A DNA stretch of 64,000 bases from Octopus vulgaris. Lineage: Eukaryota. The position numbers were made by a program, and so were the translations under genes. How positions within the stretch are numbered: the first letter of the stretch is position 1; the number at the start of each line of letters is the position of its first letter. The DNA is taken from NCBI GenBank assembly GCA_951406725.2, contig OX597833.1:73498532-73562531 (forward strand), in the 5' to 3' direction. Under the pieces are notes generated by a model. That model worked only from the letters and a program-made list of their open reading frames with translations. It was not told the DNA's origin and searched no databases. Shown in pieces: positions 9,080 through 64,000 of the stretch.

Positions 9080-9842
9080 ATGATTCTTCCCAGCTTGCCC
9101 ACATACTCTGGTGATGTCACACTTTGGTTTGCTCAACTGGATGCATATTTTTCCACTCATGATGTGCCTCACCAACAGCAACTAAACATTTTGTACTGTA
9201 GAATGCCTTCACCTCTTGCACACTCAGTGAAAGATCTCATTACTGACCCACATCCGGACGTGACTTATGCATCCGTCAAATTCGAGGTTCTCTGTTGAAA
9301 CACACAATCCATGGAGAGTAAATTCTGGACACTGATGCAGGATGAACACCTGGGAGGAAGGACACCATCTGAGTTTCTTTGTTGCTTGCGAGAACTCAGC
9401 GACACTCCACTTGACGACAATTCTCTGCTAAGGAAATTGTTTTTCTCTTGTCTACCGCCGAACGTCCAATCGATACTGGCCACAACAGTCAACTCCAATT
9501 CACTCGATCAGATAGTCACCATGGCGGACAAGATCATAGAATTTACTATGCATCCTGCACTTCACCTGTTCGGACCCTGTAGTAGCTCCCTCTACTACTA
9601 TAGAGTCTCCTGCCTTGTCAGATGATGACATTTTGGAGAGAGTCGATGCATTAACACCTCACATGGACACACTGTGGCGAGAACACACCAGCTCTCATAG
9701 TCCTCACAGCAGAAGCCGTTCTAAGACATGGTCATCTAGTTCTACTCCAACCATTTCCAATCTCTGCTGGTACCATGCCAGATTTAAGGACAAAGCCCTT
9801 CCATGTATCCAGCCCTGTTCGTTCATGCTGTCGGGAAAATAA
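9080..9842 (+). pseudogene. Gypsy gag, disrupted
   Basis: LPTYSGDVTLWFAQLDAYF, LGGRTPSEFL, LLRKLFFSCLPPNVQSIL, CWYHARFKDKALPCIQPC (atypical Cys/His knuckle); in-frame stops and frameshift. Confidence 0.85.
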
Positions 9843-9849
9843 TTGCGGA

Positions 9850-12800
9850 AGATTTGGGCACATCAATTTCTTCCTGCAATTTTTTATCTCATCATGCATT
9901 CTTTGTCAAGGATCGTGTGTCTAACGAATCGTTCATGATTGAACCTGAATCCAGCTGTTCTATTTGTCCTTTGCACCTTACTTCAGACAAGCCGAAGAAA
10001 TCTGCCATTAACCTGCACACAGTGAATCTATCCCCGATAAAAACTTACAGTCAAGTCTAATTAAACCTAAATCTCAACAATTCGAAGGAATTTTAGGTGG
10101 GTTTTTGTTATGGCATTCTGGGTGCAGACTTCTTAAACCTCTTTCACTTGTTAGCAGATGTCAGGTGACAGAGATTTGTGGACGAGTCTACATCTTTGTT
10201 TACACCTGCCCTGGTTACTACTAATGCTGTTTTCAGCCATCATTTTTAGCTGGAGATCAGTTCCACTGCCTTTTGGTTTCTTTCCGACTTTCAAATCAGT
10301 CAAAGTCACACACTTGCCTCGCCATTATATTACTACTTCTGGAATACCCATTTTTTCGCATCCACAGCAACTCGCCTTTGATCGGCTCAAAAAGGTTTAA
10401 TCTGAGTTTGAGCATATGCTTCAACTTGGCCTTATTCACCTCTCCATCAGCCCTAGGGCATCTTCTCTTCATTTGGCCTGGAAAGGGGATTCAGATTTTC
10501 GTCCGGTGAGGGATTACAGATGTTTGAATGCGATCACTGTACCTGATTGCTATCTGCTAAAAGATCTCCAGGATTTTTCTCCAAACTTGCCTGGTTGTAC
10601 TACTTTTCCCAAGGTTGACCTCATCTGGGCTTATCATTAAATTCCGATAAACCATGACAACATTCCAAAAACTGTCATTACTACCCCTTTGGAAGTTTCA
10701 AGTTCCTGTTTATGAGCTTGGGTTTGCGGAATGCAACAAGTACCTTCCAGAAGTTTATTGATGAAGTTGTCCATAGACTTGACTGTGTGTTCACTTATGT
10801 GGATGATTTGCTCATAGCTAGCGACACGTGTGAAAATCACCTCCAACATTTATCTCAGCATTTTCAGCGTCTTTGCACCTACAATGTGCGAATCAACCCT
10901 GGATAAGTGTGTTTTCAGACAGGCCTCTCTGAAATTCCTAGGTCCTTATATCGACTCTAATGCTATTCGACCTCTCGCCTCCAAAGTCGATGCAATTCAA
11001 TGCATCTCTCATCCCACTTCTTTACACCAACTGTGTCATTTCTTGGGGATCGTCAACTCCTTCAGGAGATTCATACCTAAATGTGCAGACAAGTTACTTC
11101 CCTTGACTCAACTATTGATAGCAAATAAAAAAGATTCTCCTATCACTTTATCTGCCGAGTCATTATCTTCTTTTGAGTCAGTCAAGGAGGAAATAGCTTC
11201 TGTTCCTTTGCTTGCACATCTGGTTCACGGTGCTCATCTTTCTTTAACAGTTGATGCATCGGATTCTGCGGTCGGTGCCGTTTTACAACTGACCGTCGAT
11301 AATCAAACTCAACCTTTGTCATTCTCTTCTCATCAATTAAAGCCAGCTGAGCGTCATTACGGTATGTTTAATTATGAACTCTAAGCGATCTACCTGTCGG
11401 TTCGTCATTTTCAACATCAACTCGAGGGCCGAGATTTTGGTATTTATACTGATCACAAGCCTCTTACATTTGCTCTGTCATTTAAATCGGACAGACACTC
11501 GCCTTATGCTTTTCGTCATCTGGACTACATTTCCCAGTTCACGAGTGACATTCGGCACATACCTGGAACTGAGAACGTACCTGCTAACGCACTCTCTCGT
11601 CTTCCTGTGTGTTCTCTTTCATCTCTTGCTGCAATCGATTTAACTTCCATTGTGCAGGATCAGCCAGCTCTGGACACATTGGATCTAACTTCCACCAAGT
11701 TGTCCTGTTGCAAGTTTGCCTATCTTCCACTTCCGTCTGCTGAAGGCACAATCCTCTGTGACAAAGCTACTGGTTCTCCCAGGCCGTTTGTACCTGCAAA
11801 CCACCAGCGTTCTGTTTTTGATGCCTTGCATTCACTGTCACATCTTGGCATCGCTGCCTCGATGAAGCTTATTATGGCTCGGTTTTTCTGGCCTAATATG
11901 CACCGGATGATCACCGCTTGGGCACACTCTTGTGTGAAATGCCAACGTTCTAAAATCCACGGGCACATTTGCTCTCCCCTTGGACAGTTTTCTCCGCCGG
12001 AGACTTGCTTTCACGAAGTCCACATTGATCTGGTTGGACCATGGCCTGTTAGTCACGGTTTCTCTTACATATTTACATTTATCGATCGTTTCTCTCATTG
12101 GCCTGAAGCCATTCCAATAGTGAACATTTCCACTGAGTCAGTTGCTCGTGCTTTCGTTTCTAATTGGATTGCTCATTTTGGTGTTCCAGCTAAGATAACC
12201 ACTGACCATGGATGCCAGTTTAAAGCTTCCTTATTTCGTGAATTACCACGAATCCTAGGTGTTCGTCACATTCGCACGACCAGCTACCATCCAGCTTCCA
12301 GCAGGACTGTCAAACGTTTTCACAGGCAACTGAAGGCCGCTCTACATTCCACTCCTGATCCGCAGTCTTGAACAGAATTCCTGTCTATCGTTCTTTTTTT
12401 GCACTGCTGTTTAGTTTTCTCCTCTGTCGAACTCCTTTACAGTGCCACCTTGGCACTTCCTGGTACAATGTTAGCACCAATCAATTCATCGCATCCTGAT
12501 CCAAAGTAGTATGTCTCCAGACTTCGCTTGTATTTCTCAAGTCTTTCACCAATGTGTCCGCATGACCAATCTATTCCCTCTCACGTCCCACTGGACATTG
12601 ACAAGTGGACTCATGTTTTTGTTCGGGATGATTCTGTCAGAGGACTGCTTGTTTCTCCCTATAAAGGACCGTTTCATGTGCTATTGCGCACACCCAAAAC
12701 TTTGAGTCTCGACATCAATAGTCGGGCAGAGACCGTGTCAGTCGACAGCCTTAGAAAGGCATATCTGACGTTTCAACACCCTTCGATGACACTCTGGCTA
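9850..12800 (+). pseudogene. Gypsy pol (PR-RT-RNaseH-IN), many stops and frameshifts
   Basis: ILGADFL, DYRCLNA, GLRNATSTFQ, YVDDLLIAS, VDASDSAVGAVL, H..SH...CVKCQ zinc finger, HIDLVGP, TTDHG, TTSYHP, GPF-type motif PYKGPF. Confidence 0.92.
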
Positions 12801-13210
12801 CACCCACTTATGGTCCTTTACAACCACCTACACACCCATCTGCATATGCACGTTTGACCACACCATCAACATCTCCAGAACCTAACACTAACAAACCCTG
12901 TCACCAGGGCAGGCCATACTGTGCATTGGCCAAAAAAACTTAAGAAAACTATTTATATCTGACAATCTCTTTGTTTCCTGTGACAGACAATTGCTTTCTT
13001 GAGTTACTGAACAATTGTAATACTCTGCCATTGAAGATTTTGTCAAATTTTGTGCATGCCAATTAATATTTCTAGCAATTATTTTTCTTTTTGACTAGGT
13101 CACATTTTTGTACCACATCTTGTTTGCAATCGGTTACCATCTTTGCTATTTTCTTGTGCCTGCTCCAGTTATTCTCTATTTTCACACTGGCGTTCCCAGG
13201 AGAGAGTCCC

Positions 13211-17041: not shown

Positions 17042-18039
17042 TGGTAATTTACTTGAATTTACCTATGTATAACATCATAAATTATGACTCTGATAGAATC
17101 TTTTATTATTTTTGTTCCTGTCCTCCAATTTTCATGTCTCCTTCAATATTTCCTTTTTCTTTTTTTTACCAAAATACTATCAGATTTGTTTTTATCATCG
17201 CAGATTATAATTACGCAAATTTAATTTCTCCCAAATTCAGTTATTTGACAGATTTTCATTAAAAAGCAATGAAATTCTGCGTGAAATACATTATTACATC
17301 ACTATATCAAATTTAAACATTTTCACTTAATTTTAAAATTTCAAAAAGTGAAGGGAAACAGAAAAGGTCCAAGCCGGGTTTTTCTTTTTTTCAAATAAAT
17401 TCACGAGCGAAATACGTGGGCAGAACTAATGTACATTGAAATAAAAACAGCATTTGTCTGTCACCTACTTTTACTTTTTCTTATTTTAAATATTTGTCAT
17501 GTTTAACAAAAGGCACCAATCTTCCATTGTTCCGTTGTATCACAAACACATTACTTACGTAAAATAGTTTAAACACTTTCTACGTATTTCCTCTTCAATA
17601 ACTATGAACCACTTTCTTTATATTATGTACTAAGTTATATTACAGAAGATCTCTAACCACCAAGCTCCTTGCTTCATGTTATTGCATTCAATTATTTCCA
17701 TGAAGACATTTAATCACTAACGATGCCGGCGATGTAAAAAATATATGAAAACTGAAATATATTAATATTTGGTCCCTCTTGTCTTCACATGCAGCCAGCC
17801 AAACTACTGGGAAATTCCAACGAAGTGTTAATTATCAAAGCCCGCACACTTAACCTCCATTCATGTACATATAACTAATTGAGTACGTGTAGTGTACATT
17901 TGTAACGAGTTTTGACATGGTCAGTTACTGTAGCAGTTCAATACTGTTTAGAACGAACAAATAATACTTTTTAAATGTACCAGTTTCACTTTCTCAAACT
18001 AACAAGTGTGGACGGGTCAATAGCTTCTGTGCTCCCACT

Positions 18040-22475: not shown

Positions 22476-22920
22476 CTAAGATAGACTGCAAAGAAAATTA
22501 AAAATATTCACAATGTCATCTCTGTGTCCACTTTGGCATTTCAATTGAGGAAAACTTTCTAAATGTTTTGGAATTTCTATATCTTCATGGTTCCTGATCA
22601 TAAAAATTTGACCAATTTTAGGTTGTCGATCTTCCATGATTTGTTTGGCATATTCAGTGTGGGTTAAAAACTCTGGTGATATAGTCTTTGAATGTTCTAA
22701 ATAAATTCCAATATTGCAACTGTTTTCTAATATGGTACGAAGGTTTACAGTTTTATATTTTCCCAATATATAGTCACGATTACCAAATGTAACTTTTAAC
22801 CCAAAGTATTTGTCTAGATTCATTCCAATGTTTTCAGCCAGTTCTTCAGAGTTTGGGGATGTTAAAATATAGATATCATAATGAAAGTTAGTTACGATGT
22901 CATTCTTTGAACATGCTAAC
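22476..22920 (-). pseudogene. TIR-like coding segment of copy A, out of frame after the +1 insertion at 22921
   Basis: Translation identical to the C-terminus of copy B (LACSKNDIV...FLCSLS*). Confidence 0.8.
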
Positions 22921-24651
22921 TCCCGGTTTAGCATTGGTTTCAGAGCCAAATCCAAAACAAAGCTCATAACATTTTCTGAAGAACTCTTTGCTACAGTCAG
23001 GCTCTGTTTCTGTGAAATGCTTTCCTAAATTTACATAAATTTGTTTCATTAGCTTTACATCAACTTCATGGGGCTTAACTTCTGAAAACCTAAGACAAAG
23101 AAAAGCTTTAAAATATTGCTTATTTTTACAAAGTTTTCGTAACTTTCGTGATAATTCACTTTTATCACAATCCACGAGAAGTTTATTATAAAGTTCTTCA
23201 TCATCACGGAGTTCCTCTACTGACTCAATTAATTCCAACAGTTTTTCATTATACTCAATATACCCATGCTCATACACATCAGTCATAATATCCTTTATTC
23301 CCCAAATGTCTTTCAGCTTCTTCTGGAAAGGAAGAAATTCTATAGCAGATTTAATAGCAAGGAAGAACCTATCTGTTCCATCGTCTCTAAATTCTCTTTT
23401 TAAGTCTTCATCATTTTCTTCTTCTGCTAGTATGAAATATAATCTTCCATACAAAATATGAAAACTAACGTCTTGTATTTTAATATTTGTTTTAAATTGT
23501 TCACAACACTCCTGGGCATTTTCGTATTCTTTCAAAGCCAAATATAACAAAATCAAATCGTAGAGAACAGCTGCATTTTCTGGAGAAAGTTTAAGAGCTT
23601 CTTTAAAGTGATATTCTATTTTGCCAATGAATTCATTCCTTTCCAATTCAGGAATAGTTCTAGGATATTTAATAAGTTTTCCAAGTGTATTTTCTTCCAC
23701 AGAAAACTCCTTCTTTGCAGTGAAACATGTGAATTCTCGAATATGTATTTTTTGATAAGTTAATCCAAGATGATGATGAGAAAATGCTGTTGCATTTATT
23801 TCGATTGCTTTTACAAACAATTCTTTTGCTTTATCAAACTTATATAAAGTCTTATAAAAGTTAGCACACTTTTCCAAAACAAAACGGTCATCAGGGGCAA
23901 AATGAAGAGCTCTTTGAACATATTTTTCACTGAATTCCTGATTCTTCAGAATATTACATTTCCTTGAAGGTCTCACTTTAAACAAAGCTAATAATGCTAA
24001 CGTTTTCCCCATTAGGATCTTGTCAATACAGCGAGGAAAAGCACATCGTATTTTCTCTAAGTACTGTACTGCCTCTGTACTAATTGTGTTTTTTTTATCT
24101 TCATCAGAGATCTTTCTTAAACAACGATACTGTAACAAAGCTACACCAAATAGACATGAATAATTGCCCGGACAAAAATTGGAAGCCTCTTTGTAAAGTT
24201 TGATAGCCCTCTCATAATCATTGAATGATATTCGACTTAAACAATAAGCAACATTCATTTTACCTTCTGCTTCTATCTGTTGGAAATCTTCTCTTTTTTC
24301 AAGATTGTTAAGATAAACCATAACCTCTTTTAACTTATTCATATTTTCATTGTACAGATGAATGAATGCAAGATTGGTTAATGCCAAGAGGTTGTCTGGA
24401 TTAGTTTCTCGAACTTCATTGGCTAATCTTTCAGCTTCAATATTCTTATTTAGCTCCCACTGAATAAACACCAAGGTATTCTTGTGGCGAATCTCATCTT
24501 CTAAACCAGACACAGTATCGTTACTTAATGAATTTTCCAGTTTTTTGTAAAGAGACAACCAATGATCTTTGGTGTAGTGAAAATATTCTCCCATTAAATT
24601 CGGAAATCTCTGAATTTTTTCTCTGTACAATTCTCTTCTGCTTTCGTCATC
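22900..24651 (-). CDS. Exon 2 of IFIT-like TPR gene, copy A (TIR-less, 600 aa with exon 1)
   Basis: Acceptor ttttctttcag|GATGAC in phase 0 at 24651; TPR motifs; frameshift gives ...AKPGVSMFKE*. The ORF-track N-terminus MPTIMV...FFFQ is intronic polypyrimidine sequence. Confidence 0.8.
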   Translation of the reverse strand, partial: DDESRRELYREKIQRFPNLMGEYFHYTKDHWLSLYKKLENSLSNDTVSGLEDEIRHKNTLVFIQWELNKNIEAERLANEVRETNPDNLLALTNLAFIHLYNENMNKLKEVMVYLNNLEKREDFQQIEAEGKMNVAYCLSRISFNDYERAIKLYKEASNFCPGNYSCLFGVALLQYRCLRKISDEDKKNTISTEAVQYLEKIRCAFPRCIDKILMGKTLALLALFKVRPSRKCNILKNQEFSEKYVQRALHFAPDDRFVLEKCANFYKTLYKFDKAKELFVKAIEINATAFSHHHLGLTYQKIHIREFTCFTAKKEFSVEENTLGKLIKYPRTIPELERNEFIGKIEYHFKEALKLSPENAAVLYDLILLYLALKEYENAQECCEQFKTNIKIQDVSFHILYGRLYFILAEEENDEDLKREFRDDGTDRFFLAIKSAIEFLPFQKKLKDIWGIKDIMTDVYEHGYIEYNEKLLELIESVEELRDDEELYNKLLVDCDKSELSRKLRKLCKNKQYFKAFLCLRFSEVKPHEVDVKLMKQIYVNLGKHFTETEPDCSKEFFRKCYELCFGFGSETNAKPGVSMFKE

Positions 24652-26569: not shown

Positions 26570-27985
26570 GTGCCTAGAACATGACGACACGCTATGGAAC
26601 AAAGGAGCCAAATCAAACTGGGAATTCCAGGGGAATTTCCCTGCTTTCCGTTGATGGAAAAATCCTGGCCCACATCTTTTTCAATATTCTCATCAACAAC
26701 ATCTCCAAGAGCGACTCGCCTGAAGCCCAGTGTGGCTTCTGCCCAGGCCACAGCACCATGGACATGGTGTTTGCTGTGCGTCAAGTTAAGGAGAAATGTA
26801 TTGAACAACGGATGGATTTATACTCTGTGTTCATAGACCTGACCAAAGCTTTTTGGATCATGCTAACCAAGCATGGCTGCCCACACAAGTTCACCACACT
26901 GATAAGACTCTTTCATGGCAATATGAGCAGTGAAGTTTTTTTGCAATGGTGACCACACCAACTCTTGACATTGGGGCACGAAACAGGGCTGAGTGCTCAC
27001 CCCCATCTTGTTCAATTTGTTCTTCACACAGGTCCTGCTTTACACAGTGAAAGACCTAAACCTGGGCATATACATCAAAATATCATTCAGACTGGTCTGT
27101 TTTTCCTCCTCCACTCACTCTCTGCTTGAACCAAGACACTGGAAAAGCTCATCACAGAAGCCCTATTTACAAATGACAGTGTACTTAGGGCACACAAGGA
27201 AAATCACCTGCAGACCATTGTTGATCACTTTGCAGAAGCATGAAAGCTTTTGGACAGATCATCAGCCTTGACAAAACGGAGACCCTAGTCCAAGCAGCAC
27301 CAAACACATTTCACTCCAGCCAAACACCACCATTGAGGGAGTCCAGCTTAAGTGTGTGGAGAGTTTCAGGTACCTTGGTAGCACAGTCTCAGCCGATGGA
27401 TCATTGAACAGTGAAACATTATCCAGAATCCGCAATGCCAGTTAAGAAGCACTTGGAAGACTGAAAATGAAAGTCGTCCAGCAGAAAGGCATCAGACAAT
27501 CGACAAAGCTCAAGATCTACAAGGCTGTAGTCATTTCTACACAATTCTATAGAGGGCAAGCATGGGCCCCCTGGCATCAGCACATCAAACAGCTGGAACA
27601 GTTTCACACAAGAGCATTCACTGGTAGGACAGTGTGACAAACCAACAAAAGTTTGTTCAACAAGCATTCAGTTAATGTTGCTGAAGGTTCAGTTATACTG
27701 GACTGACCATGTCATCAGAATGGCTGACAACTGTGTACTCAGACAGCTGTTCTACAGTGATTTCATGCAGGGCTCATACAAACCAGGAAGGCCTAAACTG
27801 AGGTACCAAGGCACCCTGAAAAGTAACCTAATTATCTTGAGACTAGCAAGAGAAAGACATCATAGGACAGCATCCAGCTCAATTCAGTCAATAGACTACT
27901 GATGTGATATCTGTGTGCTTCCAGTTTCGGATTGGGAAGTCACGTGTGCTCTCATCACTGTGAACACAGACTTTGTCATCATTAG
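26570..27985 (+). mobile_element. RTE-clade LINE, 5'-truncated and decayed (copy B at ~54205-55620)
   Basis: GNSRGISLLSVDGKILA, PEAQCGF, STMDMVFAVRQVKEKC, FIDLTKAF, LFTNDS (LFADD-like), FRYLGS, QLYWTDHVIRM, GRPKLRY. Confidence 0.9.
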
Positions 27986-31140: not shown

Positions 31141-32410
31141 CGAGGGGCGTTCAATAAGTAATGCCCCTGACTCACTTGCAGTTGTTTGATCTAGCTGAAA
31201 TTTTGCATGTGCACTTATTTATACCTCTATAGATTAAGTGGCGAATTACAGCTCTGAACTAATTGTGGTTTCTGATTTACAGGTGTTTGAACTGAGTCAA
31301 GTGTGAAATGGAGCCTGTTGAGTGTCGAGCAGTGATCTGGTTTTTGTATTTGAAAGGACGCACACCACGGGAGACTTTTGATGAAATGAAAGTAACTTAT
31401 GGTGATGATGCCCCATCATATGACCTTGTAAAACGCTGGCATCGTGAATTCAAACATAGTCGGAACTCTGTGGAAACAGCTCCCAGATCTGGTTGCCCCC
31501 TTCTGCCGTTGATGAGACGTCTGTCTGTCAAGTTGAGGCTGCCATTTTGGAAGGTCAACGCATAACTATTCGCCAAATAGCCCATAAGGTCAAGATTAGT
31601 ACCGGGTCTGTGGAAACTATCATTCATGGCCATTTGCATATGCAAAAGGTGTCTGCCAGATGGATTTCCAGGTTGCTCACATCTTTCCAGAAGCAAGAAC
31701 GCGTTGAGTGCTCGAGGATGAATTTGGAGATGTGCCAAGAAGACGAGTCAAAATTTTTCAAAAGACTGATCACACAGGATAAAACCTGGGTCCATCACTA
31801 TGATCCATAGACCAAAGCCCAGTCAATGCAGTGAAAGCACCGTGACTCACCTCCTCCAAAGAAGGCAAGGGTGCAGCCCTCCGCTGACAAGGTTATGCTC
31901 ACAGTCTTCTGGGACCAGGACGGAGTAGTGATGACAGATTTCCTGGCAAAGGGTACCACAATTACAGGAGCCTATTATGCTTCACTTTTGAGGAAATTAA
32001 GAGAAGCTATCAAAATCAAGAGGCGGGGCAAGATCAGCAAAGGCATCCTCCTCCTGCAGGACAACGCTCTGGTCCACAACTCGCATGTCGCCAGATCAGA
32101 AGCACAGGCGTGCAGCTATGAACTCCTCCCATTGCACCCTCTGATTTTCACCTCTTCCCAGCCATGAAGTTGATTTTGAAAGGAAAGCGTTTCCCAGATG
32201 ATGCAGCCTTGATTTCTGAAGTCACGTCGTGGTTGGAGGACCAAGCTGGGGTCTTCTACAAAAACGGTCTCCAGAGCTGTATCAAACGATGGGAGAAATG
32301 CATAACTCTGAGTAGTTCCTATGTAGGAAAAGACTAATAACTGTGCCAAGTTTCGTTGCTCTACTGCTGTGGGAAGTGGGTCAGGGGCATTACTTATTGA
32401 ACGCCCCTCG
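31141..32410 (+). mobile_element. Mariner transposon, full-length and decayed (copy A)
   Basis: TIR cgaggggcgttcaataagtaatgcccctgac at both ends; TA flanks; VSARWI, ITQDKTWVHHYDP, KVMLTVFWD, LLQDNA. Confidence 0.95.
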
Positions 32411-35154: not shown

Positions 35155-35316
35155 TTCCCAGAAACGAAACCCGATTGCAATATTGGATACTGTGAACGGA
35201 TTCGAAAAATATAGTTGGGACTGAAGAAGTGAGACAACTGAAGAATTAGTAAAAACTGTTTAACGAAACTTAGAGAATGGTAGAAATAAACGATGTGAAA
35301 GTGTGAAAGTGAAAGT
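35155..35316 (-). promoter_or_regulatory. Putative STAT/IRF-responsive promoter, copy A
   Basis: GAS TTCCCAGAA (35155-35163) overlapping ISRE AGAAACGAAACC (35160-35171); GAAAGT x3 including GAAAGTGAAAGT (35305-35316); TATA-like sequence at ~35080-35088. Confidence 0.6.
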
Positions 35317-36254: not shown

Positions 36255-38180
36255 GCATGTATATATGTCATTATTCAGTTTTATTTTAAGATTTCTTGCC
36301 AACAGAGAAACAGCCAGTTTCTAAACTAGATCCAACGCTCTTTCATTAGAATTTCAACATCAACAAGATATTTGTGTGTGTGTGTGTGTGTGTGCAAATT
36401 TCTATGTCTCTTTTTATGTTTGTTGCCTCAAACATTTACTTGCATATCTAGACATGCTCATATATATTGGGTCATTCGATAAATAATGCAGTTTTTTTTC
36501 AATTGCTTGAGCTAAAAGTTGGATGGAGATAGGATAAACTACTTGCATCAACTTGCTGTAAAAGCAGGTAGTGATTTTACCTTGAATTTATTCTTAGTGC
36601 AAGTTTTGAGGAGTGCAATTCGATTTTAACAGTTATTTTTTCAAAACTATAATGGAAGTGACAAAGGTGGTTATTTTGCTTTATGAGTTCAATAAAGGCA
36701 ACAACGCAACAGAAAGTGCGAGGAATATTAATGCAGTATATGGGGGTCGGATGATAAGTGTAAGCCAGTGTCAACAGTGGTTCCAGAAATTCCAAGTCGG
36801 AAACTACAGCCTAGAAGATGAGCCTCATCCTGGAAGATCTGTAGAATTCAGCAAGGACACCTTGTAAATCCTTGTGGAACAAAATCCCATCGTGACTGTT
36901 GAGGAACTAATAGAGAAGCTTGGATTTGGTCATTCAACCATTCATTGACTCCTGCATGCCATCAGAAAAGTCAGCAAATTGGGTCAATGGGTTCCTCACC
37001 AACTTTCCAAGTCTAATTGCGCACAGAGAGTGAATGTGTGCTCTTCTTTGCTGTCACATCTCACGAATGAACCGTTTTTTGGACCAAATAGTGACTGGTG
37101 GCAAGAAATGGGTTCTCTAAAAAATGTCAAGTGCCAAAGACAGTGGGTAGGGAAAGGAGAAACGCCAGCGGCCCAGGTTAAAGAAGGTCTTCACCCATGG
37201 AAGGTTTTGTTATCTGTTTGGTGGGATATGAAAGGTTTAGTCCACTTTAAACTTTTAAATCCAAACCAAATGAAAACAAAGGAAATCTACTGGGAGCAGC
37301 TTGAGTGGACTCAATTCAGTGCAAGAAGAAAAACAACCATCTTTGGTTTCAAGATGAAAGGTGTTCTTCCATTGGGATAATTCTTTGCCACATACAGTGA
37401 GGATGATATTTCATAGGCTGGAGCAGTTTGAATGGGAACCAATGTCCCACCCACCATATTCGCCAGACATTGTCCCATCTGATTATCATTTATTCTGCAG
37501 TCTTCAAAATCATTTGGACAGAAAAATGTGTATTCTGTAGACAAGATCAGAACAGTACTAGAGGAGTATTTTTCAGCACTAACAAAGTGAATTTTTGGAC
37601 AGGGGCCTTACAAGTCTACTAGATAGATGGAAGAGCATTGTAGAAAATGAAGGAGAGTATATTTTAGATTAAACAAAAGAACTTTGTTTATCTTAATTTT
37701 GAAAAATAAAAGAAGTATTTAAAAAATGCCTTATTTATGGAATGACCCAATACCTAAACGATAAACTTCTAGAAAGTTTTACAGATTTTTAGTTTCAGTG
37801 ATGGCTTAGATCTGTACTTTCTCCTTTCTGGTTTTGAGAAACCTAATTTCTTGAGATTGTTATTTTGGTAGTGTGTTACATATCTCAGTGCTCCATTAAT
37901 TACATATATAAACCTGAGCTTGTAATCTGGATAGAGTAACTGCTGATTTCTCAATAGTTTACCATAGGTATTCTCGTTTTTCACTGATCTTCAGCTTTAT
38001 GTTAACATCCTCAGGGCAGCTAATTTCCACAAATGTACAGAGTTTCTCTTCTCTATCCCAAATCATTATATCAGGTCTATTGTGTTTATATTCTATTAAG
38101 TTTTCACTAGGACATGTATGTATAGCACCTTCACATTTGTTTTGAAGAACTATGAGGGAATACCAACTCTCTTCATTATA
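36255..38180 (-). mobile_element. R4/Dong-like (RLE) LINE 3' fragment interrupted by a mariner
   Basis: HNRPDIMIWDREEKLCTFVEISCP..KENTYGKL; its 3' UTR at 36255-36462 mirrors 40730-40960. Confidence 0.8.
36467..37750 (+). mobile_element. Second mariner family, full-length and decayed
   Basis: TIRs ttgggtcattcgataaataatgc / gccttatttatggaatgacccaa; TA flanks; LYEFNKG, WVPHQL, KVLLSVWWD, YSPDIVPSDYHLF. Confidence 0.93.
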
Positions 38181-44593: not shown

Positions 44594-47533
44594 TGTACAT
44601 TCAAATAAAAACAGCATTTGTGTCACCTACTTTTACTTTTTCTTATTTTAAATATTTGTCATGTTTAACAAAAGGCACCAATCTTCCATTGTTCCGTTGT
44701 ATCACAAACACATTACTTACGTAAAATAGTTTAAACACTTTCTACGTATTTCCTCTTCAATAACTATGAACCACTTTCTTTATATTATGTACTAAGTTAT
44801 ATTACAGAAGATCTCTAACCACCAAGCTCCTTGCTTCATGTTATTGCATTCAATTATTTCCATGAAGACATTTAATCACTAACGATGCCGGCGATGTAAA
44901 AAATATATGAAAACTGAAATATATTAATATTTGGTCCCTCTTGTCTTCACATGCAGCCAGCCAAACTACTGGGAAATTCCAACGAAGTGTTAATTATCAA
45001 AGCCCGCACACTTAACCTCCATTCATGCACATATAACTAATTGAAGTACGTGTAGTGTACATTTGTAACGAGTTTTGACATGGTCAGTTACTGTAGCAGT
45101 TCAATACTGTTTAGAACGAACAAATAATACTTTTTAAATGTACCAGTTTCACTTTCTCAAACTAACAAGTGTGGACGGGTCAATAGCTTCTGTGCTCCCA
45201 CTGCAGTAGGCATCCGTTGATTTCAAGGGACCACGGATGTGTGCCTGAGAATTTGTGTTAGCTGTTGATAGTGGTGCCACATCTGCTGTGGTGGCTGTAC
45301 AGGCTTACATGCGAGTGGCAGTCACACAGACAATGGCTGCATTCGAAGAAGCCCTCTGCCATCACTATTGATCCGTTGTGGTAAGTTCCAGGTTCTCTTC
45401 CCCTCACTTCATTCTCTTTTTGCAGTTTTTGGCTCCAGTATGGGCAGTCATTTGCAACCTCCTCCCATTTCTGGATGTCCACATCTATTAACTTCATCTC
45501 TCTCTCTCTTGCTGATGTCCTTGTCCGAAGAAAAGCTAGTTTTGTGTGTGTGTGTGCGCGCTTTGTGTTATCTATTAACTAATATCAGTGTAGTCCTTCG
45601 TTATTTGAAGTTGAGAATAAACCCCTAATTTATTGATAATTCAAATGTTTTATTACTAAAGATGGAATGGATACAGTTAGTTTACCAAATCAAAACCATT
45701 TTTTGCACATTTTTAAATTCCTGATTTCAAGGCAGATGACTCATATGGCTCAGCATCGTTTGTAACTCATCTGTTCTGTGGCACATCCTTAATGCCACAG
45801 CAGAGATGATGGATGGAGTTACTGCAACAGTAAATAAATGAAGTGAAACACTGAAATATTTTGTAGAATCTGCTAGATTGTATTTTCCAATCTGTGGCTT
45901 TTGAGACATTCTAGGGTCTGCGGATAACAGACAAGGTCTTTGACTTTGTTAGTGTCCTACTTCAAACATCAGATGGTGTTTGGGAAGTCACCTGGTTGTT
46001 TCTAGCATGTGTTATATTTGAGTGGGGTGTCTGTATACCCCTGGTTATTCACTGATTTCTTTTCTCTTTCTCATTTTTCTTACTATTTGCTTTTGTCAGT
46101 TATGTTCTTTTCCACTGGAGGAAAGTCGTCATCATTTAACACCTGTTTTCCATACTGGCATGGGTTAAACGGTTAGACAGGAACTGCTAACACCAACCAC
46201 TTTGTAGAGTGTAGTGGGTGCTTTTGTTATTGCACCGGTAACCGCGAGGCCACTATCTAACTTGCAAAATTGGTTAAGTGTACCCCTAATTCATGTTGTA
46301 GACATACAGGCAATCCTCAACATTGTTTCATTATAACATTCATGTGAAGTAATATAGAATAGTGTGAAATATAAATCCACCTAGGGTACCTAAAGTACAT
46401 ACCACAAAAATGAACTGTTGTTTACTATAATTTTTCCTTTCTTTTGGAACTTGTTTTCAATTCAGTAAAATAGAAAGAAATATATAAACGAGTTTGAACA
46501 ACAATACAAATCATTTTCTTTTTTTGTTTAGTTTTGTTTATCAATATTTAGCAAACAACATCAACATATTCATCATATACACAGGTTGGCTGCCTTGAAA
46601 CCAGCAGGCAGTGGTACCTACATGGTATCAGATTAAGGGCTTTATCAAAGGACACAGTATTTCAGTTTGAATACACTTAACACACCACATCTTCACTTCA
46701 AAATATTCCCTGTAAATCAATACAAATTGGTTAATGGAGAAAGAATAAACATTAATTGAAATATCCTGTGAAATTTTAATGGCTTTTGCACAAAAATTAC
46801 GTCACTGCTACTTGCAAAGAACTGGAATTTACAATTAAACACATTCACGTGTCTTGAGGTGATGGGTTGTCGAGATTGTCATTTTCTGGAGGTAAAGGAC
46901 CATGAGAATCCTTATTTTCATTTTGAAAGGTAATTACAATATCAAGAACTGGTGCAGATGATGATGATGCTGACGACAACATTCCAAAACATTGCTGCCT
47001 TGTCTACACAATAGACATAGAAGTTCAATTCCATCTGAGGCCAATGAGTCAAACGTTGTCCAGGGAATGCTTTTCTCCACACACTACATGAAACTTTAAA
47101 CTATGTCAATCTTTGAAACTGGGAAGCCAAACCTTACTATAACCACAATATAAAATATATTTAAACATATATTAGAACTATATAAAGTGTGTGCATTTTC
47201 CTTCTTTTATTTTATATACACACACATATATATACATACATATATACATACATATATATATAAATATATATATGTGTGTGTATATACTTTATTAAAAAGC
47301 AGCAAAAATATCACAAAAACTGTTACTCAGAGTTTCACGTTACCATTCATCAGACAGTTTTGTTTACATTCTAAACAAAACAATCCAGCAAACAGGAACA
47401 TGAAACTACGAGTAACAGTTTTTTGGATATTTTTGCTGCTTTTTAATAAAGCATATTCCTCAACCTCTGGTACTCGAGTACTATTTTTTCCACCTTCTTT
47501 CACATTTATGTGCTTACTCTGGTATATATATAT

Positions 47534-50111: not shown

Positions 50112-52286
50112 CTAAGATAGACTGCAAAGAAAATTAAAAATATTCACAATGTCATCTCTGTGTCCACTTTGGCATTTCAATTGAGGAAAACTTTCTAAAT
50201 GTTTTGGAATTTCTATATCTTCATGGTTCCTGATCATAAAAATTTGACCAATTTTAGGTTGTCGATCTTCCATGATTTGTTTGGCATATTCAGTGTGGGT
50301 TAAAAACTCTGGTGATATAGTCTTTGAATGTTCTAAATAAATTCCAATATTGCAACTGTTTTCTAATATGGTACGAAGGTTTACAGTTTTATATTTTCCC
50401 AATATATAGTCACGATTACCAAATGTAACTTTTAACCCAAAGTATTTGTCTAGATTCATTCCAATGTTTTCAGCCAGTTCTTCAGAGTTTGGGGATGTTA
50501 AAATATAGATATCATAATGAAAGTTAGTTACGATGTCATTCTTTGAACATGCTAACCCCGGTTTAGCATTGGTTTCAGAGCCAAATCCAAAACAAAGCTC
50601 ATAACATTTTCTGAAGAACTCTTTGCTACAGTCAGGCTCTGTTTCTGTGAAATGCTTTCCTAAATTTACATAAATTTGTTTCATTAGCTTTACATCAACT
50701 TCATGGGGCTTAACTTCTGAAAACCTAAGACAAAGAAAAGCTTTAAAATATTGCTTATTTTTACAAAGTTTTCGTAACTTTCGTGATAATTCACTTTTAT
50801 CACAATCCACGAGAAGTTTATTATAAAGTTCTTCATCATCACGGAGTTCCTCTACTGACTCAATTAATTCCAACAGTTTTTCATTATACTCAATATACCC
50901 ATGCTCATACACATCAGTCATAATATCCTTTATTCCCCAAATGTCTTTCAGCTTCTTCTGGAAAGGAAGAAATTCTATAGCAGATTTAATAGCAAGGAAG
51001 AACCTATCTGTTCCATCGTCTCTAAATTCTCTTTTTAAGTCTTCATCATTTTCTTCTTCTGCTAGTATGAAATATAATCTTCCATACAAAATATGAAAAC
51101 TAACGTCTCGTATTTTAATATTTGTTTTAAATTGTTCACAACACTCCTGGGCATTTTCGTATTCTTTCAAAGCCAAATATAACAAAATCAAATCGTAGAG
51201 AACAGCTGCATTTTCTGGAGAAAGTTTAAGAGCTTCTTTAAAGTGATATTCTATTTTGCCAATGAATTCATTCCTTTCCAATTCAGGAATAGTTCTAGGA
51301 CATTTAATAAGTTTTCCAAGTGTATTTTCTTCCACAGAAAACTCCTTCTTTGCAGTGAAACATGTGAATTCTCGAATATGTATTTTTTGATAAGTTAATC
51401 CAAGATGATGATGAGAAAATGCTGTTGCATTTATTTCGATTGCTTTTACAAACAATTCTTTTGCTTTATCAAACTTATATAAAGTCTTATAAAATTTAGC
51501 ACACTTTTCCAAAACAAAACGGTCATCAGGGGCAAAATGAAGAGCTCTTTGAACATATTTTTCACTGAATTCCTGATTCTTCAGAATATTACATTTCCTT
51601 GAAGGTCTCAATTTAAACAAAGCTAATAATGCTAACGTTTGCCCCATTAGGATCTTGTCAATACAGCGAGGAAAAGCACATCGTATTTTCTCTAAGTACT
51701 GTACTGCCTCTGTATTAATTTTGCGTTTTTTTTCTTCATCAGAGATCTTTCTTAAACAACGATACTGTAACAAAGCTACACCAAATAGACATGAATAATT
51801 GTCTGGACAAACATTAGAAGCCTCTTTGTAAAGTAGGATAGCCCTCTCATAATCATTGAATGATATTCTTCTTAAACAATAAGCAACATTCATTTTACCT
51901 TCTGCTTCTATCTGTTGGAAATCTTCTCTTTTTTCAAGATTGTTAAGATAAACCATAACCTCTTTTAACTTATTTATATTTTCATTGTACAGATGAATGA
52001 ATGCAAGATTGGTTAATGCCAAGAGGTTGTCTGGATTAGTTTCTCGAACTTCATTGGCTAATCTTTCAGCTTCAATATTCTTATTTAGCTCCCACTGAAT
52101 AAACACCAAGGTATTCTTGTGGTGAATCTCATCTTCTAAACCAGACACAGTATCGTTACTTAATGAATTTTCCAGTTTTTTGTAAAGAGACAACCAATGA
52201 TCTTTGGTGTAGTGAAAATATTCTCCCATTAAATTCGGAAATCTCTGAATTTTTTCTCTGTACAATTCTCTTCTGCTTTCGTCATC
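50112..52286 (-). CDS. Exon 2 of IFIT-like TPR-TIR gene, copy B (intact; 741 aa with exon 1)
   Basis: 724 open codons after acceptor ttttctttcag|GATGAC; IFIT-like motifs DYERAI.LYKEA..CPDN..LFGVALLQYR and EKYVQRAL..VLEKCAKFYK..DKAKELFVKAIE..FSHHHLGLTY; TIR-like YDIYILTS, GLKVTFGNRDYILG, ILENS..IGIYL. Confidence 0.88.
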   Translation of the reverse strand, partial: DDESRRELYREKIQRFPNLMGEYFHYTKDHWLSLYKKLENSLSNDTVSGLEDEIHHKNTLVFIQWELNKNIEAERLANEVRETNPDNLLALTNLAFIHLYNENINKLKEVMVYLNNLEKREDFQQIEAEGKMNVAYCLRRISFNDYERAILLYKEASNVCPDNYSCLFGVALLQYRCLRKISDEEKKRKINTEAVQYLEKIRCAFPRCIDKILMGQTLALLALFKLRPSRKCNILKNQEFSEKYVQRALHFAPDDRFVLEKCAKFYKTLYKFDKAKELFVKAIEINATAFSHHHLGLTYQKIHIREFTCFTAKKEFSVEENTLGKLIKCPRTIPELERNEFIGKIEYHFKEALKLSPENAAVLYDLILLYLALKEYENAQECCEQFKTNIKIRDVSFHILYGRLYFILAEEENDEDLKREFRDDGTDRFFLAIKSAIEFLPFQKKLKDIWGIKDIMTDVYEHGYIEYNEKLLELIESVEELRDDEELYNKLLVDCDKSELSRKLRKLCKNKQYFKAFLCLRFSEVKPHEVDVKLMKQIYVNLGKHFTETEPDCSKEFFRKCYELCFGFGSETNAKPGLACSKNDIVTNFHYDIYILTSPNSEELAENIGMNLDKYFGLKVTFGNRDYILGKYKTVNLRTILENSCNIGIYLEHSKTISPEFLTHTEYAKQIMEDRQPKIGQIFMIRNHEDIEIPKHLESFPQLKCQSGHRDDIVNIFNFLCSLS

Positions 52287-62706: not shown

Positions 62707-62907
62707 AATCTGTTTTATGCTTTATATGTTTTTGTTAGTATTGTTATATTTAAAGAATTATTGAAATAAACTTGTTATACATACATATCTATACACACGT
62801 ACAAACATACATACATGCCTACATACACACGTACATATACATACCTACACACTAAACAACACAGAGTTAATATTTGTTCATGTTTGTAAATATGTTGATA
62901 TACTTAC

Positions 62908-62958
62908 AAGTAGAATTCCATCCAATTTTTCAATAATTTCCTCGATTTCTTCAGCCAT
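62908..62958 (-). CDS. Coding exon 1 of IFIT-like TPR-TIR gene, copy B (MAEEIEEIIEKLDGILL)
   Basis: aaaATGG start, 51 nt, GTAAGT donor in phase 0 compatible with the acceptor at 52286. Confidence 0.75.
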
Positions 62959-63164
62959 TTTCTGTCTCTCTTTTTTTATCCTTTAAAGCAAATTTATAAA
63001 ACTAAACAAAATAGTTTTGTTTCCTTGTTGTCGACTTTTTTCTGGTATATTTTGCCAAAAAGAAAATGTAAATTTCTATAAATGATATATTATATATAAA
63101 AATGTTCAATGCAGTTGAATGTGTCCGATCAACAAATATTTTCTAACAACACAGTGAGTGTCTC

Positions 63165-63326
63165 TTCCCAGAAACGAAACCCGATTGCAATATTGGATAC
63201 TGTGAACGGATTCGAAAAATATAGATGAGACTGAAGAAGTGAGACAACTGAAGAATTAGTAAAAACTGTTTAACGAAACTTAGAGAATGGCAGAAGTAAA
63301 CGATGTGAAAGTGTGAAAGTGAAAGT
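63165..63326 (-). promoter_or_regulatory. Putative STAT/IRF-responsive promoter, copy B
   Basis: GAS 63165-63173, ISRE 63170-63181, GAAAGT x3 at 63307-63326; all motifs identical to copy A. Confidence 0.6.
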
Positions 63327-64000
63327 TTTGTAGAAAAGAAAATCACTTCCGCGAAAACAATCCGGATATCAAATGGCTAAGAGTCACTAAAATGAAATTC
63401 AAGATTCAAAATAAAACAGAAGTTCTTACAACAAGCATTAAGTATATTAAAACAAATTTATTTCTTTGGTTTTACTTAAATTTTAAATAAACACAATTTG
63501 ACCCGTACGAGGATATAGTAACTGGAATAAACCATTTCGTTCAGCGCCCGACCTGTCAGGTGAAATATTTAGACATGAAACAGCACAGATACTATACCTG
63601 TAAGTCAGGTAGGGTAGCATAGTTTAGGCTCAACTGAAGTCCGAATACTTAGGCAGCAGCTTAACACTACCGTCTCGTACCTGGCTGCATGGCATTTATT
63701 GTGGTCAGGCCTCACTACGGTTGCAGGTGTAACATTCTAGTTTAACGGTAAGCGCTTTGATCATAAATGCATGTAATGTAGACAGGTTTAAATAAATTTG
63801 TACTTTTCTCATAACACACACACACACACATGTATGTATATTGCTTCAAGCTTCTGTTTTTGTAGGCCAGTCCAACCTCCTTTCGATTACATGCGACAGT
63901 TGTATTCTCAGAGTATCTACACAGTAGTTATTCTCCAACACTGAAGGTGTTGCTCTTATTTTGAGTATGTGATGGAATGTACACATTTCTTTCTTTACAG

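Follow-up and report, generated by a model that had tools for sequence, protein, structure and literature searches.

Whether an octopus can carry a gene that is IFIT-like in its product and under virus-alarm control in its expression is the question raised by a minus-strand gene in the 64,000-nt stretch of Octopus vulgaris DNA analysed here (the window). A preliminary description had placed four motif strings of IRF and STAT type roughly 200-370 bp upstream of the ATG in both copies of this gene and had read them as an IRF/STAT regulon. All four strings were found exactly in both copies, and the cluster lies at a distance of 207-368 bp, counted from the A of the start codon at 62958 (Table 1).

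The gene copies and the motif cluster

The codons of exon 1 encode exactly the first 17 residues of P0165, a 741-aa protein from Octopus vulgaris with the automatic name IFIT1B-like, and exons 1 and 2 together match this protein without a single difference. The neighbouring copy corresponds to P0163. Its exon 2 is separated from that of the first copy by 20 substitutions, 17 of them non-synonymous and 3 synonymous, and by one extra base, and the resulting loss of the TIR domain from this lower copy may be a real truncation or an assembly error. The duplicated block measures about 27.6 kb, and as its copies are 97-99% identical, the two motif clusters amount to one observation rather than two. 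Three O. sinensis loci and three O. vulgaris proteins fall into a single 90% cluster, so the multi-copy state is found in two assemblies, and there are also octopus paralogs of 474-510 aa (50-56% identity) that have no TIR. Several RefSeq isoforms from O. sinensis loci (P0164, P0167, and P0170) begin within the intron or at a later methionine, hinting at alternative 5' ends. Decayed mobile elements were seen by eye in the open reading frame list at 9299-12857, 26578-27902, 31460-32167, and 36949-37380, and we take them to be pieces of LTR-type gag/pol, LINE reverse transcriptase, and mariner-type transposase.

Table 1. Positions of the gene, its motifs and the surrounding promoter-like zone in the window; the names C/EBP, ETS and E2F are labels that we presume to fit the motifs.
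Feature	Position	Strand	Remarks
Exon 1, coding part	62908-62958	-	17 codons; phase-0 donor GTAAGT at 62907
Exon 2	50112-52286	-	724 codons; IFIT-fold TPR ~52265-50769, TIR ~50522-50115
Exon 2, neighbouring copy	22476-24651	-	Frame closed ahead of the TIR by one extra base; P0163, 600 aa
GAS-type palindrome TTCCCAGAA	63165-63173	.	Overlaps ISRE
ISRE-type AGAAACGAAACC	63170-63181	+	Two GAAA cores, one-base spacer
C/EBP-type palindrome ATTGCAAT	63184-63191	.	3 bp from ISRE
Single IRF half-site AACGAAAC	63272-63279	+	Weak
TGTGAAAGTGTGAAAGTGAAAGT, three GAAAGT cores	63304-63326	+	Last two cores form strict IRF-E GAAAGTGAAAGT
ETS-type GCGGAAGTG	63344-63355	-	Overlaps loose GAS/E2F-like TTCCGCGAA
Same motif cluster, neighbouring tandem copy	35155-35316	.	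ATG 34944; motifs unchanged
ATG-free 5' leader, exon 1	62959-63435	-	Holds all motifs
CpG-retaining promoter-like zone	63092-63591	.	

The ISRE-type string reads GGTTTCGTTTCT on the gene strand, and it has the letters AGAA in common with the GAS-type palindrome. We liken this composite GAS/ISRE layout to that of GBP and the ISRE core to those of OAS1 and Mx, which are again labels that we presume to apply. RGAAACGAAAC has its sole match in 45.3 kb of unique sequence at this ISRE, and neither the palindrome at 63184-63191 nor the ETS-type string has a second site in the unique sequence; the latter is a candidate basal core-promoter element. The strict GAS and the strict IRF-E each occur one other time in the 44.3 kb used as background, whereas IRF half-sites are common (34 in 45.3 kb). 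We assume that the IRF-E also corresponds to the Blimp-1/PRDM1 consensus. A further strict IRF-E is located 5 kb downstream of the gene's stop, so such sites do exist away from the start of the gene. Each repeat unit also contains a second cluster about 5 kb downstream of the stop, at 44858-45156 (and 17696-17993), with a perfect ISRE AGTTTCACTTTC at 45145, a loose GAS TTCCATGAA at 44858, and the string GGGAAATTCC at 44971, which is presumably of kB type. This cluster adjoins a CpG-retaining patch, and it could serve the array as an enhancer or represent a further promoter.

To judge how often such a cluster arises by chance, we compared the 1 kb upstream with 20,000 dinucleotide shuffles of itself. 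A strict IRF-E was found in 91/20000 shuffles, two tandem IRF cores in 69/20000, a strict GAS in 1680/20000, and lone IRF half-sites in 608/20000, such that neither the GAS nor the half-site is significant alone, while two tandem IRF cores and a GAS occurred jointly in 4/20000. Because the window is rich in GAAANNGAAA relative to its shuffles (19 occurrences vs 5.8, or about 3-fold), an empirical background of 44.3 kb of non-duplicated sequence was also used, with one pseudocount for each element and independence assumed. Against this background, the joint chance inside 1 kb is 4.3e-4 for an IRF-E with another tandem core and a GAS, and 9.7e-3 when the GAS is left out, though these values are weakened because the consensus patterns were picked after the sequence had been inspected. 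In 2247 overlapping 200-bp windows across 45.3 kb of non-duplicated sequence, two tandem IRF cores were present only in those over the cluster, and the loose GAS (TTCN3GAA) is at background frequency, with 30 matches vs 24.7 expected. The IRF elements carry the statistical signal of the cluster, and the GAS adds to its joint significance. The cluster is above chance in both comparisons (about 4e-4 per kb locally); of the regulon proposed in the preliminary description, the IRF part is made plausible by the non-random tandem cores, and the STAT part, with one site that is not significant alone, is the weaker.

Leader, contigs and promoter-like zone

Contigs of four sequencing runs from four studies, out of 24 runs listed, were compared over 62800-63790. 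Three of these runs are RNA by automated guess, and the fourth is of unknown kind; all four consist of contigs. In 4/4 runs the contigs end at the exon-1 donor at 62907, with zero depth in the intron bin 62868-62901, and the loose contig end in runs X9 and X18 is the exon-2 start, letter for letter. The loose end of run X4 at 62907 is a variant exon-2 start, which suggests another paralog or allele with the same leader. Upstream, the contigs continue unbroken to 63265 in X9, where the depth is lowest at 2, and to 63494 in X1, and those of X4 and X18 reach 63617 across a skip of 194 bases. The GAS/ISRE is covered by contigs of 4/4 runs and the IRF-E by those of 3/4. These contigs carry no mapping of starts, can derive from any of three near-identical paralogs, and merge overlapping transcripts. 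The end at 63617 in X4 and X18 was rejected as a start site, as it lies exactly 30 bases beyond the skip, as at a graph branch. The skip itself (63394-63587) lacks GT-AG ends, whichever strand is read, and probably represents a deletion allele. Both skip and non-skip forms are present in X18, and the skip takes out three upstream ATGs.

The leader also stands out in its composition. No ATG is found in the 479 nt before the start codon, where shuffles contain a mean of 5.2, and this was equalled in 27/20000 shuffles and in 2/1776 real windows. It is the longest ATG-free stretch on the minus strand in the unique sequence, the next being 280 nt. The CpG observed/expected ratio reaches 1.12 in the 500 bp from 63092, the top value among 444 overlapping 500-bp windows covering 45 kb, for which the median is 0.38. 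We read this stretch as a CpG-retaining promoter zone with a basal start at or beyond about 63400. Since the contigs cross the motifs and 479 nt are free of ATG, the motifs lie inside a long 5'UTR, and in the transcripts seen the basal start, at least, is upstream of them. The CpG peak, the exon-1 contigs, and the ATG-free leader together place the motifs within a few hundred bases of a transcription start. The position upstream of the start that is characteristic of vertebrate IFIT genes was not found for the transcripts seen. The earlier prediction of a start some 100 nt before the ATG is not supported for the only or the basal start, given that contigs ending at the donor cross the motifs and that the ATG-free stretch is 479 nt long.

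Among the runs, no difference is listed in the GAS/ISRE in 4/4 that cover it or in the IRF-E in 3/3. In X4 and X18, a change at 63353 disrupts the loose GAS (63347-63355) and leaves intact the ETS core that overlaps it. None of the 11 variable leader positions falls in the 48 motif bases of 437 nt, which is not significant (P 0.27) in a comparison that spans only alleles and paralogs of 98-99% identity.

The encoded protein

Sequence comparison with solved structures returned IFIT5, IFIT1, and IFIT2 as the best matches (E 1.7e-8). With a 97-row profile, IFIT1/5 were the best natural matches, at 1.7e-39 vs 2.2e-29 for OGT, and designed consensus TPRs outscored them. The predicted model has a pLDDT of 90, and its top Foldseek matches are IFIT1 and IFIT5, with Z of 21.3-23.9 over 410-430 residues (23.9 to IFIT1), compared to 16.1 for the next structure that is not an IFIT. 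Judged by this model, the protein has the IFIT fold, co-linear from the N-terminal subdomain onward. The N-terminal profile of the family aligns with fish and frog IFITs over the full length, scoring 91-97 bits, while generic bacterial TPRs remain below 50 bits; a profile word search returned only octopus paralogs and generic TPRs. Residues of IFIT5 with a role in RNA binding have been described (PMC3950709), and the positions of K150, R186, K257, and R260 are K/R in 81, 86, 67, and 84 of the 97 aligned proteins, respectively, counts that are slight underestimates because the alignment (A2) includes the generic TPR non-members P0108, P0130, and P0131. The position of R253 aligns to E, with K/R one residue on, and Y250 aligns to F. 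Four of five basic positions of the RNA tunnel are therefore kept.

The octopus protein is not the TPR-only IFIT form of about 470 residues; it has 741 aa, with a TIR domain at its C-terminus. Residues 589-724 of exon 2 superpose on the TIRs of SPARTA, IL-18Rbeta, SARM1, MyD88, and IL-1RAcPb with Z of 13.2-14.6 and rmsd of 2.1-3.3 over 120-132 residues. In the model, this C-terminal domain is a five-stranded alpha/beta TIR fold, which is unnamed in the annotation. In the octopus protein it was detected neither by Pfam nor by phmmer against the PDB, and single-sequence folding of the domain gave a pLDDT of 36.5. Among homologs, TIR_2 was found in at least 3 of 40 scanned, with five families listed per homolog, and the TIR of a hemichordate homolog matches the scaffold TIRs of IL-1RAcP, TLRs, TIRAP, and MyD88 by sequence. 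The atlas look-alikes of the domain are TIRs, and an atlas cluster that is commonest in echinoderms has TPR + TIR_2 in 91% of its members. At the position that we take to be that of the NADase catalytic glutamate, the octopus protein has H and its homologs L, Y, or F; in any alignment column, E occurs in at most 20 of the 77 rows that cover the TIR (of 97 in total, at least one of the 77 being spurious). The earlier naming of the protein as IFIT-like is thus right as to the fold, and it is only part of the description because the C-terminal TIR was overlooked.

Explanations, family history and known systems

We consider it fairly probable (roughly 0.6) that IRF-bound IRF-E and ISRE elements below a basal start, possibly with STAT, raise transcription after nucleic-acid sensing, and that the encoded protein joins an IFIT clamp to a TIR that signals. 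Together, the IRF-E with its three cores and the ISRE with its one-base spacer would form a DNA-level immune module that is read mainly by octopus IRFs, with possible STAT input at the overlapping GAS. This module would sit in the 5'UTR of exon 1, just downstream of the CpG-retaining, ETS-type basal start region. Once activated by nucleic-acid sensing or by a cytokine, IRF/STAT would increase transcription of the gene. The product would be an IFIT-fold, RNA-binding clamp fused to a scaffold-type TIR, and its likely job would be the binding of foreign RNA 5' ends, after which the TIR might pass the signal on or nucleate a complex.

The same observations can be arranged in other ways. The gene may have a weak basal start far upstream and a second, IRF/STAT-induced start in a run of TATA-like sequence (63091-63102), some 100 nt ahead of the ATG. 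On the gene strand, such TATA-like strings do follow the GAS/ISRE at 65-75 bp downstream, the layout would be that of vertebrate IFIT genes (PMC3688568), and a second start is compatible with contigs that merge overlapping transcripts. However, TATAWAWR has 394 matches in 45.3 kb, X9 still extends to 63265 even at the lowest depth, and the length of leader without an ATG suggests that the long form has been under selection, so that we regard two starts as rather unlikely. A site downstream of the start would also fit a repressor, and the IRF-E could be bound by Blimp-1/PRDM1 or an IRF2-like factor, or else the cluster might serve IRF, ETS, and C/EBP in haemocyte expression, given that ETS- and C/EBP-type sites flank it. 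Four studies have the leader in their runs, none of which shows signs of a challenge, and in oyster IRF1 and IRF8 also govern haemocyte proliferation (PMC13524488). Repression or lineage expression alone does not predict a one-base-spacer ISRE with an overlapping GAS, nor a product with the IFIT fold, and we think it unlikely.

The cluster might otherwise have no regulatory meaning, being a hexamer that slippage doubled in a leader with purine/pyrimidine skew and that was noticed after the IFIT call. This is in line with the 3-fold excess of GAAANNGAAA over shuffles, the post hoc choice of patterns, the non-significant variation test, and the non-independence of the two copies. Yet the joint chance on the empirical background is 4e-4 per kb, or 1e-2 without the GAS, and head-to-tail hexamers that are not simple repeats are rare (19 positions in 44.3 kb), with no GAAAGT permutation with a full core among the 15 hexamer repeats listed. 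The cluster also coincides with the CpG peak, and we find an origin by chance and slippage distinctly unlikely. As the strings are within the mature leader, they might even act in the RNA, as U-rich elements or through structure, but the leader shows no more stable folding than shuffled versions of it (z +0.65), an Rfam scan of it gave no family near the gathering score, and the strings fit DNA-binding consensus patterns, which makes this a very improbable explanation.

Named homologs of the protein are found in octopods, gastropods, bivalves, and the hemichordate Glandiceps, and the IFIT-TIR architecture is common to the mollusc and hemichordate homologs. Two Saccoglossus proteins (P0100 and P0214) are closer to fish IFIT (E 1.6e-19) than the mollusc proteins are, with no TIR evident, and they are possible intermediate forms. 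In a 24-row tree, from which P0012 was left out for short coverage and in which unnamed TPR proteins served as outgroups, the deep branches were unsupported, including a sister relation to vertebrate IFITs. A scan of metagenomes with the octopus alignment gave no relative among 324 candidates. A literature search, with most subscription papers outside it, found no description of an invertebrate IFIT-TIR family or of an octopus IFIT, although the ecTIR-DC catalogue may already include this family. Molluscan IRF-ISRE control and the automatic naming of such proteins as IFIT-like in databases are already known.

Our results suggest that IFIT-type proteins and their virus-alarm control predate the vertebrate interferon system. 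It is intriguing to consider, as a tentative and somewhat doubtful extension, that IFIT-TIR proteins are old bilaterian cytosolic sensors of RNA 5' ends that signal through the TIR within a pre-interferon IRF/STAT feed-forward loop, and that vertebrate IFITs are their TIR-less descendants. If so, the short octopus paralogs would be an independent repeat of TIR loss, and ISRE control of IFITs would have been inherited rather than gained with interferon. According to a 2013 survey, IFITs and their link to ISREs arose in jawed vertebrates, together with interferon, and TPR hits in acorn worm and lancelet were rejected there as IFITs (PMC3688568). A large invertebrate IFIT-fold family, with an ISRE/IRF-E cluster on an octopus member, conflicts with this published origin and makes the claim directly testable. 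The octopus cluster is furthermore a candidate native target of molluscan ISRE control, for which bivalve studies mostly used mammalian elements, and the IFIT-TIR gene is a candidate marker of the dsRNA response in cephalopods.

At the level of the single element, mutation tests have shown GAAACGAAACT to be an ISRE in duck tetherin (10.1101/2024.09.24.613690) and in human PNPT1 (PMC9570217), and the ISRE-type reading of AGAAACGAAACC is supported by this one-base-spacer ISRE of the same type that is functional in vertebrates. The GAAACGAAAC core is identical in the octopus and in both of these genes, where its mutation lowers reporter activity, while the last base is C in the octopus and T in the other two. 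The two vertebrate elements depend on ISGF3/IRF9, which to our knowledge is not known from molluscs. No paper on precedents for ISREs in first exons was found in the literature search.

That molluscs have IRFs fit for ISRE control, as the preliminary description had assumed, agrees with published work: activation of ISRE reporters has been shown for oyster IRFs (PMC5557890) and binding to ISRE for those of scallop and oyster (PMC13524488), and further molluscan IRFs activate or bind ISREs (PMC5869526, PMC8218723). This pathway was described in bivalves (oyster CgIRF1/2/8 and scallop CfIRF1/2), largely with mammalian reporter elements. In the accessible parts of the oyster and Aplysia papers found, no IFIT target is named, and no octopus counterpart was found in the literature. 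In Nematostella, promoters induced by dsRNA/poly(I:C) contain STAT, IRF, NF-kB, and ETS motifs in an animal with no interferon, and the accessible text does not mention IFIT (PMC8476169). That case consists of genome-wide enrichment backed by induction, whereas the octopus case is a single locus described from sequence. As for the protein, a TIR-TPR class is listed for oyster in a table legend (PMC4346834) and appears as an abbreviation only in the accessible part of PMC9334734, and ecTIR-DC families are described as widespread in invertebrates (PMC6321704; general background in PMC6723221). These proteins have the same pairing of TIR and TPR, but the accessible text draws no link from the TPR part to an IFIT fold or ISRE control.

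The closest comparison is with vertebrate IFIT genes, which have two exons and 2-3 ISREs upstream of the start (PMC3688568). Unlike vertebrate IFITs, with which it has about 18% identity, the octopus protein has an additional helical region and a C-terminal TIR. Exon 1 supplies 17 codons before a phase-0 intron in the octopus, while in vertebrates it holds the ATG and two bases; the octopus motifs are within the leader, whereas vertebrate ISREs are upstream of the start; and the octopus has no recognised type I interferon, in contrast to the hosts of vertebrate IFITs. Like IFIT1/ISG56 and IFIT5/ISG58, however, the octopus gene encodes a co-linear IFIT fold with basic tunnel residues and has two exons with a short first coding part, and like vertebrate IFIT loci, it is present in multiple tandem copies with two tandem-IRF-core elements near the start.
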